Below are positions 13,884-64,000 of a stretch of DNA of 64,000 bases, piece by piece. How positions within the stretch are numbered: position 1 is the first letter of the stretch; each line of letters starts with the position of its first letter. A program made the translations under genes and the position numbers. Source of the stretch: Escherichia coli (lineage in GTDB: Bacteria > Pseudomonadota > Gammaproteobacteria > Enterobacterales > Enterobacteriaceae). The notes beneath the pieces are model-generated. The model made no database searches and was not told where the DNA came from. It saw nothing but the letters and a program-made list of their open reading frames with translations. The stretch is from the NCBI RefSeq assembly GCF_036507355.1, contig NZ_AP027877.1; one strand, written 5' to 3'.

Positions 13884-13984
13884 ATGCCGGATGCGGCGTG
13901 AACGCCTTATCCGGCCTACAAAAATCTTGCCAATTCAATATATTGCAGGACCATGTAGGCCTGATAAGCGTAGCGCATCAGGCA
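13884..13984. repeat. REP/BIME element (two inverted REP palindromes) between fepA and entD
   Basis: gccggatgcggcgtgaacgccttatccggcctaca and tgtaggcctgataagcgtagcgcatcaggc are canonical REP sequences in opposite orientation. Confidence 0.8.
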
Positions 13985-14661: not shown

Positions 14662-15130
14662 TCGCCCGCAGCCATCACTGACTGCGGGCGAAAGTGTAAA
14701 GCAGGTGCCTTACCACTCTGACCTGACAACCGGATATGCGGGGATTGCTCCCCGCACAACGGCTACTTCTTCGGTTCGTAAGCGAGAACAGCCTTAAACT
14801 CAATATTACGTTCCTTTACGGTGAACTCACACAGCGAGTCTCCGACCAGAAGCGTAAATCCCAGCACCGTCAAACACAGCACTATGACTGCCACAAGGGC
14901 ATATTTCGTCAGCATGTTTATATTGCCTCCATGCGAAGAAGGGACTACCATCCGAGTTGTTGAGGCTCGGAGTGGCAGCCCCAGGATTGATAGAAATATC
15001 TCCTGGGGCTTCATCTTTCCAGACCTCAGAGTTAACCTGAAACCGGAAAGCTTCAGGCACCCGCCGTTATCTTACCCTTCCTTAGCAAAATAGCTGTTTA
15101 TTTATACAGTGAATCCTGTTTCGGACTTCT
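14662..15130 (-). other. hokE-like type I toxin-antitoxin locus, copy 1 (repeat unit)
   Basis: About 470-bp unit containing a Hok toxin ORF, upstream mok-like leader and a terminal inverted repeat (cgcccgcag...ctgcgggcg); repeated with 503-bp period at 15165-15632. Confidence 0.8.
14763..14915 (-). CDS. hokE: Hok-family membrane toxin (HokE-like), copy 1
   Basis: 50-aa peptide [50 protein letters not shown], typical Hok/Gef toxin with one transmembrane helix. Confidence 0.85.
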
Positions 15131-15164
15131 GTCGGCAAAACTCATCATTGCTCTTAAAACGAAA

Positions 15165-15632
15165 TCGCCCGCAGCCATCACTGACCGCGGGCGAAAGTGT
15201 AAAGCAGGTGCCTTACCATCCTGACCTGACAACCGGATATGCGGGGATTACTCCCCGCACAACGGCTACTTCTTCGGTTCGTAAGCGAGAACAGCCCTGA
15301 ACTCAATATTACGTTCCTTCACCGTAAACTCACACAGCGAGTCTCCGACCAGAAGCGTAAATCCCAGTACCGTCAAACACAGCACTATGACTGCCACAAG
15401 GGCATATTTCGTCAGCATGTTTATATTGCCTCCATGCGAAGAAGGAACTACCATCCAAATTGTCTGGTTTGGAGTGGCAGCCCCAGGGTTGATAGAAATA
15501 TCTCCTGGGGCTTCATCTTTCCAGACCTCAGAGTAAACCTGAAACCGGAAAGCTTCAGGCACCCGCCGTTATCTTACCTTTGCTTAGCAAAATAGCTGTT
15601 TATTTATACAGTAAGTCCTGTTTCGGACTTCT
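15165..15632 (-). other. hokE-like type I toxin-antitoxin locus, copy 2 (repeat unit)
   Basis: Second unit, roughly 95% identical to copy 1 with scattered substitutions and a 1-nt indel in the leader. Confidence 0.8.
15266..15418 (-). CDS. Hok-family membrane toxin (HokE-like), copy 2
   Basis: 50-aa peptide identical to copy 1 except K41R (…[14 protein letters not shown]). Confidence 0.85.
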
Positions 15633-26120: not shown

Positions 26121-27503
26121 TTATTGCTGCCAACCGCCACCAAGTGCGGTATATAAAGAAATTTCGTTGACCTGACGGGCATAATTCAGGTCAAGTAAGG
26201 TTTGTCGGGTTGCAAATAAAGAACGCTCGGCATCCAGCACTTCCAGATAACTTACCGCGCCGTGCTGATATAATGCCCGCGCCCGTTGCAAAGTAATTTG
26301 CAGCGACGCCAGATAACGCTGCTGGGCGCTGATTTGATCGTTCAGGCTTTGACGTAATGCCAGCGCATCTGCCACTTCTTTAAAGGCGTTCTGGATTTTC
26401 TGTTCATAATTCACTACCGACTGCTGCTGGCGAATTTCGGCGATATCCAGATTGGCCTGGTTGCGTCCGGCATTAAAAATGGGGATCTCAATTTTAGGAA
26501 TAAAATTCCACATCCCGCTGCTGGCGTTAAATAATGACGACAGATCGCTGCTGGCGGTTGATATTCCGCTGGTCAGGCTTATAGATGGGAAAAATGCCGC
26601 GCGTGCGGCCCCAATATTGGCATTAGCCGCCATTAACGCGTGTTCAGCTTCCATAATATCCGGGCGCTGCAATAAGATTTGCGACGACAAGCCCGCCGGT
26701 AATTTAACGCTTTGCAGGCTGTCGCTGTTTACTGTCTGCGCTTGCGGCAGCTTGCCGTAGCTTCCCAATAACAGTTGCAATGCATTATTCGCCTGCGCCA
26801 GTTCCCCCTGACGTTTAGCGATGTCACTGCGGGTACTTTCTATCACCCCGCGAGCCTGTTCCAGCGCCAGAACATTGCTGCTACCGGTCAACAGTTGTTT
26901 TTCGACAAACGCATATGACTGCTGATAATTACGCAGCGTTTCTTCGGCTATTTGCAATTGCGCATACGCCAGTTGCTGATTGAAATAGCTTTGCGCGACA
27001 TTAGAAACCAGCAGAATATGCACCGCGCGCTGAGCTTCCTCAGTGGCTAAATAATTTTGTCGCTCGGCTTCGCTCATGTTCTTTAAGCGCCCGAAAAAAT
27101 CGAGGTCAAAGCTGGCGTTAAGGCCAGTAGAAAACTCCCGCGTCGTGGCTGAATCGCCTTTAAGATTGCCGCTCCAGCTGCCGCTGCCCTCGCCATTGAG
27201 CTGTGGGTAGCGGTCGGCATCGGTCAGACGATATTGCGCCCGTGCCTCCTGCACTTTCAGCGTCGCCATGCGCAAATCCCGGTTATTCACCAGCGCCTCG
27301 CTAATCAGCGTCTTCACCTGATTATCAACAAAAAAGGTGCGCCAGCCCGCGTTCTGATAGTTATCTGCTGCGTTAACGAGGCCGTTCTGGCTGAGTGAGA
27401 ACTGCTGCGGTACGGGCATTGCCGGGCGCTGATAATCCGGTGCCAGTGAACAACCGGTTAGCGCAAGGGCCACACAAAATGGCAGAAGTTTACAAGGAGA
27501 CAT
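26121..27503 (-). CDS. cusC: Outer membrane efflux lipoprotein CusC
   Basis: 460-aa ORF with a lipoprotein signal (LALTGCSL), OMF/TolC-like. Confidence 0.95.
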   Translation of the reverse strand: MSPCKLLPFCVALALTGCSLAPDYQRPAMPVPQQFSLSQNGLVNAADNYQNAGWRTFFVDNQVKTLISEALVNNRDLRMATLKVQEARAQYRLTDADRYPQLNGEGSGSWSGNLKGDSATTREFSTGLNASFDLDFFGRLKNMSEAERQNYLATEEAQRAVHILLVSNVAQSYFNQQLAYAQLQIAEETLRNYQQSYAFVEKQLLTGSSNVLALEQARGVIESTRSDIAKRQGELAQANNALQLLLGSYGKLPQAQTVNSDSLQSVKLPAGLSSQILLQRPDIMEAEHALMAANANIGAARAAFFPSISLTSGISTASSDLSSLFNASSGMWNFIPKIEIPIFNAGRNQANLDIAEIRQQQSVVNYEQKIQNAFKEVADALALRQSLNDQISAQQRYLASLQITLQRARALYQHGAVSYLEVLDAERSLFATRQTLLDLNYARQVNEISLYTALGGGWQQ

Positions 27504-37001: not shown

Positions 37002-37078
37002 TGGCGCGCCCTGCAGGATTCGAACCTGCGGCCCACGACTTAGAAGGTCGTTGCTCTATCCAACTGAGCTAAGGGCGC
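37002..37078 (-). tRNA. argU: tRNA-Arg (anticodon UCU), argU
   Basis: Reverse complement reads GCGCCCTTAGCTCAGTTGGATAGAGCAACGACCTTCTAAGTCGTGGGCCGCAGGTTCGAATCCTGCAGGGCGCGCCA: cloverleaf with TTCGAATCC T-arm, UCU anticodon and CCA end. Confidence 0.93.
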
Positions 37079-37529: not shown

Positions 37530-37544
37530 GGTAATGACTCCAAC

Positions 37545-38048
37545 TTATTGATAGTGTTTTATGTTCAGATAATGCCCGATGACTTTGTCATGCAGCTCCA
37601 CCGATTTTGAGAACGACAGCGACTTCCGTCCCAGCCGTGCCAGGTGCTGCCTCAGATTCAGGTTATGCCGCTCAATTCGCTGCGTATATCGCTTGCTGAT
37701 TACGTGCAGCTTTCCCTTCAGGCGGGATTCATACAGCGGCCAGCCATCCGTCATCCATATCACCACGTCAAAGGGTGACAGCAGGCTCATAAGACGCCCC
37801 AGCGTCGCCATCGTGCGTTCACCGAATACGTGCGCAACAACCGTCTTCCGGAGCCTGTCATACGCGTAAAACAGCCAGCGCTGGCGCGATTTAGCCCCGA
37901 CATAGCCCCACTGTTCGTCCATTTCCGCGCAGACGATGACGTCACTGCCCGGCTGTATGCGCGAGGTTACCGACTGCGGCCTGAGTTTTTTAAGTGACGT
38001 AAAATCGTGTTGAGGCCAACGCCCATAATGCGGGCTGTTGCCCGGCAT
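37545..38048 (-). CDS. insB: IS1 InsB (transposase frame; InsAB' is made by -1 frameshift)
   Basis: 167-aa [28 protein letters not shown]… overlapping the insA 3' end in the -1 frame. Confidence 0.95.
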
Positions 38049-38242
38049 CCAACGCCATTCATGGCCATATCAATGATTTTCTGGTGCGTACCGGGTTGAG
38101 AAGCGGTGTAAGTGAACTGCAGTTGCCATGTTTTACGGCAGTGAGAGCAGAGATAGCGCTGATGTCCGGCGGTGCTTTTGCCGTTACGCACCACCCCGTC
38201 AGTAGCTGAACAGGAGGGACAGCTGATAGAAACAGAAGCCAC
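37967..38242 (-). CDS. insA: IS1 InsA
   Basis: 91-aa protein [42 protein letters not shown]…. Confidence 0.95.
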
Positions 38243-38525
38243 TGGAGCACCTCAAAAACACCATCATACACTAAATCAGTAAGTTGGCAGCATCACCAAT
38301 TATCTTAATCCTTTGACAAGGAAATAAGTCAGTTCCAGATTTACAACGCCATCATGGACGAAAAATGAAGCTTTCAATCTCAGCGACCTCAGCGACGGTG
38401 CGCCTAACCTTCGCAAGAGGTCGCTTCACGCGATAAATCTGAAACGAAACCTGACAGCGCGCCCCGCTTCTGACAAAATAGGCGCATCCCCTTCGACCTA
38501 CGTAACAGATGGAATCCTCTCTCTG

Positions 38526-53077: not shown

Positions 53078-53119
53078 ATCATACCACTCGCCTGATTATT
53101 TTTAGCTATGTTGGATTTT

Positions 53120-53147
53120 GCCACGGTTTATACCGTGGCTTTTTTTG
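53120..53147 (+). terminator. Rho-independent terminator of the allDCE operon
   Basis: Hairpin gccacggtttataccgtggc followed by TTTTTTT. Confidence 0.7.
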
Positions 53148-53161
53148 TAGTAAATTCAGGT

Positions 53162-60542: not shown

Positions 60543-62324
60543 TTATTCATAGTGCATGAAGCAGGTTTCAGTCGGTGCATCCGCTGCGTTATCGGCGATA
60601 TCTTCAAATTCCATGACGTTATCCAGTTCGCTGCCCATCGAAATATTTGTCACACGCTCGAGAATAACTTCCACGACTACCGGTACCCGATATTGCGCCA
60701 TTAAGGCTTTCGCCTGTTCAAAGGCCGGTGCAATATCTTCCGGTTTGAAGACGCGAATAGCTTTACAACCTAAACCTTCCGCTACTTTTACGTGGTCGAC
60801 GCCGTAACCGTTCACTTCGCTGGAGTTGATATTCTCGAAAGCGAGTTGCACGCAGTAGTCCATGTCAAAGGCGCGTTGTGACTGACGAATCAGGCCGAGA
60901 TAGGCGTTATTCACCAGCACATGGATGTACGGAATGTTGAACTGCGCGCCAACGGCTAACTCTTCAATCAGGAACTGGAAGTCGAAGTCACCGGAAATCG
61001 CCACCACATTGCGTTTCGGATCAGCGGCACAAACCCCCAGCGCCGCCGGAATCGTCCAGCCTAACGGACCAGCCTGACCACAGTTGATCCAGTGGCGGTC
61101 TTTAAAGACATGCAGCATTTGTGCCGCAGCGATTTGTGACAGGCCAATGGTGGTGACATAACAAACATCGCGACCAAAGGCTTTGTTCATCTCTTCATAC
61201 ACGCGCTGCGGTTTCACCGGCACGTTGTCGAAATGGGTTTTGCGCAGCAAAGTGCGTTTGCGCTGCTGGCAGTCGGCGACCCATTCTTTACGACACGGCA
61301 GACGACCCGCTTTTTGCATCTCCTGCGCCACTTCAACCAGCAGTGTCAGCGCCGCTTTAGCATCAGAGACAATGCCGAGATCCGGACACAGCACGCGGCC
61401 AATTTGCGTCGGCTCAATATCGATATGAACGATTTTGCGCCCTTCGGTGTATTTCTCTACCGAACCGGTATGACGGTTAGCAAAACGGTTACCGATACCA
61501 AACACCATGTCGGACGCCAGCAACGTTGCGTTACCGTAACGATGCGCGGTTTGCAGACCGACCATCCCGGCCATCAGTTCATGATCGTCCGGGATACAGC
61601 CCCAGCCCATCAGCGTTGGGATCACCGGAACGCTGGTCAGTTCAGCAAACTGTTGTAACAGTGCAGCTGCGTCAGCATTGATTACCCCGCCCCCGGCAAC
61701 AATCACCGGACGTTCGGCCTGGATTAACATTTCTACAGCTTTTTCGATCTGCATACGGCTGGCAGCAGGTTTGTAGACCGGTAGCGGTTCGTACATGTCA
61801 GGATCAAACTCGATTTCCGCAACCTGAACGTCGAACGGTAAATCCACCAGTACCGGACCCGGACGACCAGAACGCATCAGGTGAAATGCCTGTTGCAGCA
61901 CGCGAGGCACCAGCGCCGCTTCACGAACTGTAACCGCCATTTTGCTGACCGGTTTAGCAATTGCTTCAATATCTACGGCCTGAAAATCTTCTTTATGCAG
62001 ACGGGCGCGCGGTGCCTGGCCGGTAATGCACAGAATAGGAATGGAATCAGCAGAAGCGGAATAGAGCGCGGTGATCATGTCCGTGCCCGCAGGACCGGAA
62101 GTCCCCAGACATACGCCGATATTCCCTGCCGTTGCGCGGGTATAACCTTCCGCCATGTGCGAAGCACCTTCCACATGACGCGCCAGAATGTGACGAATAC
62201 CGCCGTGCTTACGCATCGCTGAGTAGAACGGATTGATTGCAGCTCCCGGAACACCGAAGGCGGTGGTGATACCTTCTTTCTCCAGCACATACATTGCCGC
62301 GTCAACGGCTCTCATTTTTGCCAT
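60543..62324 (-). CDS. gcl: Glyoxylate carboligase Gcl (ThDP enzyme)
   Basis: 593 aa from the ATG at 62324 ([18 protein letters not shown]…); the track ORF from 62414 is an upstream extension across the promoter. Confidence 0.96.
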
Positions 62325-62344
62325 TTTATTCCTACCTCTATTTA

Positions 62345-62361
62345 TTGGAAAATTTTTCCAA
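62345..62361. promoter_or_regulatory. AllR operator in the gcl promoter
   Basis: Perfect palindrome ttggaaaatttttccaa about 20 nt upstream of the gcl start. Confidence 0.8.
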
Positions 62362-62413
62362 CTTTCAAATTTTGTCAAAAAAACCCGCTCCGCAGAGCGG
62401 GATGCGACAGACA

Positions 62414-63229
62414 TTATGGATGTGCTTTCAGTCCCAACGCCGTGCTGATATCGCGGGCGGTGTCTCTGACCAGCTCACCCTGACTGACAAAACGATCTTC
62501 TGTCAGTCTTGATGAAGGCCCGGAGATGGAGATAGCGGCAACAACGCTACCGACATCATCGTAAATTGCTGAAGCTATGCAATTCAGACCTACAACATGC
62601 TCTTCTTTATCTACGGTATAGCCCAGTTCACGCGCTTGTTCCAGGTCCTTCAGCAAGGTGGGCATATCCACAAGCGTAGTTGGCGTAAACTGCTGCAAAC
62701 CGGTTTGCAGAATGATGCTCATCAACTCCTCTTCCGCCAGCGGATAAAGCAGCGCCTTGCCCGCACCGGAAGCATGCAGCGGCAGACGACTGCCCAGTGG
62801 CGCACACATCCTGACCATCGATTTACACTCTAGCTGACCAATTAATACTGCTTCATTGCCGTTACGGATCGCGACATTGACCGTTTCGCCGGAAAGTAAC
62901 ATCAGGCGGCGCATAAACGGCCCGGCGACGGAGAGGACATCGCGGTTATGGATGTACGCCGCACCGACGTTAAAGACACCTAATCCTATATGCCACCAGC
63001 CTAACTGACTGTCCTGATAGACAAAATCCGCTGCCTGTAAAACCTTCAGCAAGCGAAAGGTCGTGGAGAGCGGCAAATCCAGATTGAGAGAAATATCGCT
63101 AACCGACGAACTTCCCCCACTTTTTTCCAGATATTGCAGAATCGCAATTCCCCGCTCTAACGCCTGTGCGCCCTTCTGTGCCACAGGCTCCGCCTGTCCT
63201 GGCCTGCCGCGCCGTCTAACTTCCGTCAT
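62414..63229 (-). CDS. allR: IclR-family repressor AllR
   Basis: 271-aa [37 protein letters not shown]… with an N-terminal HTH and C-terminal effector domain. Confidence 0.96.
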
Positions 63230-63306: not shown

Positions 63307-63789
63307 TCACGCAAAACAGAGTTCCTGTTCAGGAATACTTTCAACATCACAGTTGTCACTGCCGCCGCGATCGATGGTCAGAAAATCGGTGACGCGCTGC
63401 CAGGCGAAAAGTGGGTGATGCCAGACGTTACGATGGTAATTCACTCCCTGTTCGCCGTTGGTAATAAACGCCCGCAGCGTTGACAGGTCTGGTTTGTCGT
63501 CGCCTAACGCCACGACCACCACAAACACTTCACCTTTCATCGGGATAAAGGCCTGAGTGCCCAGCGGATGACGTTCGAGTTCGTGAATGGTCAGCGGCAG
63601 ATTCGCCGGTTGCGCGCGGTTAATGCTGATAAGCGTACGGTCTTGCTCAAGAATCTCAACCAGCGCCAAATCGTGGTAACGCTCCACCAGGCCATTGTTA
63701 ATATGGAAAAAATCCCGTTGCTGCGTTTCGATTACGTCGCCATAAGCACTAAAGGCTTCCTGACTTAACGGTAATACCTGAAGTTTCAT
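63307..63789 (-). CDS. allA: Ureidoglycolate lyase AllA
   Basis: 160-aa [31 protein letters not shown]…. Confidence 0.95.
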
Positions 63790-63894
63790 CTCTTTGTCCT
63801 TGTAACATAATTCCGTTCAACCACCGCCGACCGGTCAGCTTGGTTTCAATAACAGGCAATCTAAAACCTTAAGAGAACAACATCAATACAAAAG

Positions 63895-63911
63895 TTGGAA
63901 TATTTTTCCAA
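63895..63911. promoter_or_regulatory. AllR operator in the allA upstream (allA/allS divergent) region
   Basis: ttggaatatttttccaa, a near-perfect copy of the gcl operator palindrome, about 105 nt upstream of allA. Confidence 0.7.
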
Positions 63912-64000
63912 AACTAGATTTAGTCCACAAATTGAACAGGGTTATCATGTAAAAATACTGATAAATCAGAGGATAAGAAAATCACGCAACTTGCGGATTT

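Follow-up and report, generated by a model that had tools for sequence, protein, structure and literature searches.

Two 17-bp palindromes flanking allR in an Escherichia coli genome are the known AllR operators of gcl and of allS/allA

The 89 bp between allR and gcl in this E. coli genome contain a 17-bp inverted repeat, and a near copy of it lies upstream of allA, on the far side of allR; the locus thus raises the question of which protein reads the pair and which genes the pair controls. We analysed a single stretch of 64,000 nucleotides, called the window throughout, together with the corresponding DNA of K-12 and of other genera and the published work on the regulators concerned. The two palindromes are the already known, well-characterised operators of AllR, and we regard it as nearly certain that AllR, encoded between them, uses them to repress the gcl operon and allS/allA until glyoxylate is present. 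The genes and the two sites are as follows.

60543 to 62324, minus strand: gcl, glyoxylate carboligase (TIGR01504, 1283 bits; also by annotation)
62345 to 62361, no strand assigned: AllR operator of gcl (O_gcl), TTGGAAAATTTTTCCAA, centred 29 nt upstream of the gcl ATG
62414 to 63229, minus strand: allR, IclR-family repressor of 271 amino acids (NCBIfam NF007548, the AllR equivalog, 619 bits against a cutoff of 406)
63307 to 63789, minus strand: allA, ureidoglycolate lyase (NF002948, 365 bits; also by annotation)
63895 to 63911, no strand assigned: AllR operator of allS and allA (O_allS/A), TTGGAATATTTTTCCAA, centred 114 nt upstream of the allA ATG

The palindrome pair and its gene context

An earlier note on this DNA, made from the sequence alone, had described near-identical 17-bp palindromes at 62345-62361, in front of gcl, and at 63895-63911, in front of allA. 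Both are present exactly as it gave them, TTGGAAAATTTTTCCAA and TTGGAATATTTTTCCAA differing at one base, and the gene identities on which the description depends are borne out by the NCBIfam equivalog models and by the RefSeq annotation. The gcl copy is a perfect 8+1+8 palindrome, while 7 of the 8 arm positions are paired in the allA copy. The interval under which the note had placed the pair, 62325-62413, is the complete allR-gcl spacer, flanked by the start codon of gcl (62324) and the stop codon of allR (62414); it does hold the gcl palindrome, but the second palindrome lies outside it, 1,550 bp away, and the terminator shared by allR and the small RNA AllZ falls within it as well.

When the whole window was scanned for TTGGAA-N5-TTCCAA, a check that the note had proposed, these two sites were the only exact matches, and no exact match arose in 100 dinucleotide shuffles of the window or in 200 first-order Markov simulations. 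The two stand alone, since looser matches occurred at the level of chance: three sites with two mismatches (2.8 expected) and 22 with three mismatches (26 expected) across the 64 kb. The best additional match in the first scan, at position 26495, was set aside; it falls within the cusC coding sequence.

Two AllR-like sequences with three mismatches do lie near the operators, one (62318-62334) over the gcl Shine-Dalgarno sequence and start codon and the other (63800-63816) directly upstream of the allA ATG. An AllR ChIP-seq study does mention weak AllR sites in clusters (PMC12059191). We rejected these two sequences as auxiliary AllR sites because matches of this quality are as frequent over the window as chance predicts, and the lack of conservation of 62318-62334 in Providencia also counts against that reading; auxiliary sites they probably are not.

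The gene context is that of K-12. The window is collinear with K-12 MG1655 from 624,099 to 532,240 on the reverse strand, with 97-98.6% identity over long aligned blocks, and its last 2 kb are matched in 5,404 of 5,426 complete E. coli genomes, where the genes are annotated in RefSeq as gcl, allR, and allA. The true start of gcl is the MAKMRAV at 62324 rather than that of the longer mechanical open reading frame, and gcl is the first gene of the gcl-hyi-glxR-allW-allB-ybbY-glxK operon. The allR product is full-length, so that the cognate repressor is intact in the same genome as its sites; the structure of its effector domain has been solved (PDB 1tf1, E = 2e-110), and the protein shows no amino-acid difference from K-12 AllR. 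By transfer from K-12, O_allS/A sits in the middle of a 229-bp divergent spacer between allS and allA, about 116 nt from the allS ATG. The allS start codon lies about 19 bp beyond position 64000, so allS itself is inferred by transfer from K-12 rather than seen in the window.

Elsewhere the window departs from K-12 at several points. A tandem pair of hok/sok copies occupies 14741-15564 (Rfam places sok at 14907-15062 and 15410-15564), and the two stretches align to a single K-12 segment (607621-608010); K-12 has one hokE/sokE followed by IS186B, which is absent here. The tRNA-Arg(UCU) gene argU is present at 37002-37078, and the DLP12 cryptic prophage that adjoins it in K-12 is cleanly absent, K-12 position 586054 being joined directly to 564801 at a junction near 37049. 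An IS1 at 37530-38298 stands in place of K-12 557960-564271 (sfmA through sfmF and part of fimZ), and the sfm fimbrial operon appears to have been lost by a deletion associated with IS1; this junction was matched over at least 80% of the query in only 101 of 5,426 E. coli genomes. Two further small RNAs scored above the Rfam gathering threshold: STnc480 (53084-53150, minus strand), in the glxK-allE spacer within the allantoin cluster, and ES036 (CssrF; 13921-13962, plus strand), in DNA whose K-12 counterpart lies directly upstream of entD.

Identity with the K-12 operators and conservation in other genera

Whether the pair can be equated with sites already studied is decided by comparison with K-12. 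O_gcl is identical to K-12 533879-533895 and O_allS/A to K-12 532329-532345. The allR-gcl spacer is 100% identical to that of K-12, and the 211 nt upstream of allA contain one difference, which adjoins the start codon and lies outside the operator. Because the operators, the allR-gcl spacer, and the AllR protein are all identical, experiments performed in K-12 transfer directly to this strain. The E. coli AllR motif is given as KTTGGAAWAWTWTTCCAAC in Table 1 of a comparative study of IclR-family motifs, where it is credited to Rintoul et al. 2002 (PMC8222616); against the motif as tabulated there, O_gcl fits at 18 of 19 positions and O_allS/A, on the minus strand, at all 19.

Published work bears on the pair directly. 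The gcl promoter and the control region between allS and allA are both reported to be bound by AllR, glyoxylate acting as the inducer and allantoin as a corepressor (PMC12535856), and binding at these regions with a response to glyoxylate is also stated in PMC11323563, which cites Walker et al. 2006 for the lowering of AllR DNA binding by glyoxylate. An increased flux through the oxamate branch in an allR mutant was explained by derepression of allS (PMC12535856). AllR has been studied by ChIP-seq, Library-ChIP, and biolayer interferometry, yielding a model that agrees with the RegulonDB motif, and the ChIP-seq data and binding-energy models recover the known sites (PMC12059191). A Pgcl::lux reporter was held at its basal level by AllR (PMC13300388); its primers begin immediately past the allR stop codon and reach the gcl Shine-Dalgarno sequence, approximately 62334-62413 here, and hence span essentially the allR-gcl spacer. 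Pgcl is already in use as an AllR-controlled biosensor promoter.

The proposal that AllR represses the gcl operon and allA/allS in a glyoxylate-responsive manner is therefore supported by identity with K-12, by the fit to the motif, and by published reports of binding and induction. It holds for gcl and allA as they lie in the window; allS is not in the window, and allantoin has to be added as corepressor. AllR control at these operators has been established since 2002, so the pair has little significance beyond correct annotation, but the sites can be annotated in this strain with full confidence, and the call made from sequence alone was accurate.

The pair is also found outside E. coli. We scanned species-representative genomes with the consensus TTGGAAWAWTWTTCCAA and obtained at least 120 loci, most of which are single chance matches in AT-rich genomes, as expected for 14 specified bases. 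Among the matches listed, tblastn with AllR, Gcl, and AllA placed an AllR homologue in 5 of 120 loci (three from Citrobacter, one from Superficieibacter electus, and one from a Providencia); the loci having been retrieved by the motif itself, they speak to conservation where the site is present and not to how often it is absent. All four of the listed loci with an allA-allR-gcl arrangement (the three Citrobacter loci and the Providencia locus) carry the palindrome at both orthologous positions, one upstream of allA and one between allR and gcl, at a spacing of 1,548-1,647 bp as compared to 1,550 bp in the window. In Superficieibacter the palindrome is present at the allA position, and the locus sequence ends before gcl.

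In the spacer alignments the palindrome forms an invariant block, whereas the flanks have strongly diverged in Providencia, whose AllR is 65% identical to that of the window. The core of O_gcl is exact in Citrobacter and Providencia except for one central base in Citrobacter sp. FP75, and the TTGGAA/TTCCAA arms of O_allS/A are invariant in Citrobacter, Superficieibacter, and Providencia, with variation at central bases only. The helix-turn-helix segment of AllR is kept in all five homologues. Within E. coli, BLAST searches of all genomes with 60 nt around each operator matched 2,536 and 5,335 genomes, compared with 5,404 for the 2-kb query; the lower counts probably reflect the 28-nt word size and the low-complexity filter and are no measure of conservation.

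The allR-gcl spacer and a proposed mechanism

How AllR would act at gcl depends on what else the 89-bp spacer holds. Read towards gcl, its order is TGTCTGTCGCAT-CCCGCTCTGCGGAGCGGG-TTTTTTT-GACA-AAATTTGAAAG-TTGGAAAAATTTTCCAA-TAAAT-AGAGG-TAGGAATAAA-ATG, in which the following elements can be distinguished besides O_gcl.

62377 to 62401, minus strand: intrinsic terminator of allR and AllZ, with a stem-loop at 62384-62401 (CCCGCTCTGCGGAGCGGG) and a tract of seven T's at 62377-62383
62377 to 62611, minus strand: AllZ small RNA, from the 3' end of allR, transferred from K-12 b4831; a neighbour of the operator and not part of it
62373 to 62378, minus strand: TTGACA, a -35-like hexamer of a putative gcl promoter, assigned from its sequence
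62335 to 62339, minus strand: AGAGG, the gcl Shine-Dalgarno sequence, read from the sequence (GAGG or GGAG kept in the alignment)

A 43-nt segment containing the terminator hairpin has a folding energy of -18.8 kcal/mol, and the position of the hairpin is kept across genera. The 3' end of K-12 AllZ (533863) maps to 62377; AllZ has been verified by northern blot and has an independent promoter (PMC8175672), and a transcription start site from Kim 2012 at about 62608 lies 3 nt from its annotated 5' end. The first two bases of TTGACA are the last two T's of the terminator tract, followed by GACA, and the hexamer ends 11 nt upstream of O_gcl; at the aligned position other genera have TTCACA, TAGACA, or TTGGAT.

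Scanning for promoter consensus elements gave no convincing sigma-70 promoter upstream of either gcl or allA. Its sole match, TTTCCA-17-TAAAAT, was rejected because it would place the -10 element on the gcl start codon, with no room for a leader or Shine-Dalgarno sequence, and because the number of hits equalled the shuffle expectation. The Kim 2012 tables, compiled from uninduced cells, likewise list no start at the gcl or allA promoter and place starts only inside allS, allA, and allR, the one inside allR matching AllZ; the lack of starts at the AllR-controlled promoters is consistent with repression under non-inducing conditions. The start inside allA, at 63624 on the minus strand (531840 in U00096.2 coordinates), is there attributed to allR, with a leader of 395 nt, consistent with an allR promoter of its own, independent of the AllR-controlled allA promoter.

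We propose that, without glyoxylate, the winged-helix domains of AllR would bind each 17-bp inverted repeat, with one TTGGAA half-site contacted per subunit. Because O_gcl starts so closely downstream of TTGACA, a gcl -10 element at any normal spacing from that hexamer would lie inside the operator, which extends to about 20 nt before the gcl start codon and would thus cover both the -10 element and the region of transcription start, the start itself falling at its end or slightly beyond. From this overlap we infer that repression takes place through steric occlusion, AllR on O_gcl keeping RNA polymerase off the seven-gene operon that gcl heads. TGn-plus-A/T-rich hexamers are also present in the palindromes on the strands leading towards gcl, allA, and allS; the -10 elements of the two divergent promoters could thus both lie within O_allS/A.

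At the other end of allR, the single, central O_allS/A would repress both divergent genes and, since the allS product activates allDCE and allF, would indirectly gate the whole oxamate branch. Glyoxylate, the product of the pathway, would free AllR from the DNA and permit induction, and allantoin is reported to strengthen binding. On this scheme the two operators explain why the gcl operon and allA (directly) and allDCE and allF (through allS) stay off until glyoxylate appears.

Other readings of the palindromes and related systems

The reading that survives best beside sole control by AllR involves IclR, a paralogous repressor that senses glyoxylate and pyruvate. That AllR and IclR share these operators, as the resemblance of the two motifs might suggest, is unlikely; were they to do so, the antagonism of pyruvate and glyoxylate at IclR would extend to the assimilation of allantoin and glyoxylate. 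Less likely again is that IclR is the main binder, or an additional one, with the sites then integrating control of the glyoxylate shunt. The resemblance is real: the operator cores match the IclR box TGGAAATNATTTCCA (PMC8222616) at 12 of 14 specified positions in O_gcl and 11 of 14 in O_allS/A, AllR scores 248 bits on the IclR equivalog model (below its cutoff of 380), and the ligand-binding residues of the two proteins are nearly alike (PMC11323563). However, repression at these promoters has consistently been ascribed to AllR (PMC12535856, PMC13300388, PMC11323563). The AllR consensus, at 18 and 19 of 19 positions, fits the sites better than the IclR box does, and the central positions, AAT/TTT as opposed to T-N-A, tell the two motifs apart. 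With these partial matches, the differing center, and a location at gcl and allA rather than at aceB and iclR, the sites do not belong to the IclR boxes. Only aceB and iclR were reportedly recovered in IclR SELEX.

A role at the RNA level, with the palindromes serving not as DNA operators but as leader hairpins that affect the stability or translation of the gcl, allA, or allS transcript, is highly improbable. Each would fold into a short hairpin if transcribed (-4.4 to -6.5 kcal/mol), but such short stems, made up mostly of A-U pairs with no more than two G-C pairs apiece, are weak, and the site between allS and allA would need to work in transcripts that run in opposite directions. The cross-genus alignment shows conservation of the exact sequence without compensatory changes, and binding of AllR to these regions is documented (PMC12535856, PMC11323563). 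We rejected the hairpin reading on account of the weak stems and the exact-sequence conservation. That the palindromes are chance repeats with no specific binder has a negligible probability, even though intergenic promoter DNA is AT-rich and a scan of genomes with the 17-mer yields many unrelated matches in AT-rich genomes, because the shuffles and simulations predict no exact site in 64 kb, two near-identical copies flank the cognate repressor gene, and other genera have the palindrome at both positions although the surrounding spacer has diverged, which effectively refutes it.

AllR thus remains the preferred reader of both sites, and three known systems place them. BhcR of Paracoccus denitrificans, which serves the beta-hydroxyaspartate cycle, is like AllR a glyoxylate-responsive, IclR-family regulator of glyoxylate assimilation and belongs to a sister clade (PMC11323563); the BhcR model gives AllR 269 bits, short of its cutoff of 350, and the two systems differ in organism, pathway, and operator. 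The IclR box at aceBAK/iclR is closer in form, likewise an A/T-rich palindrome with TGGAA/TTCCA arms that is bound by a glyoxylate-responsive, paralogous repressor of the IclR family, but it differs from the AllR operators in its central bases, its outer T/A positions, its genomic location, and its cognate regulator. The AllR operators of K-12 are the same element in another strain: the same 17-bp sequences, at the same positions relative to gcl and allA, with the same AllR. The differences between this strain and K-12, namely the missing DLP12 and IS186B and the IS1 that replaces most of the sfm operon, include nothing of substance at the operators.
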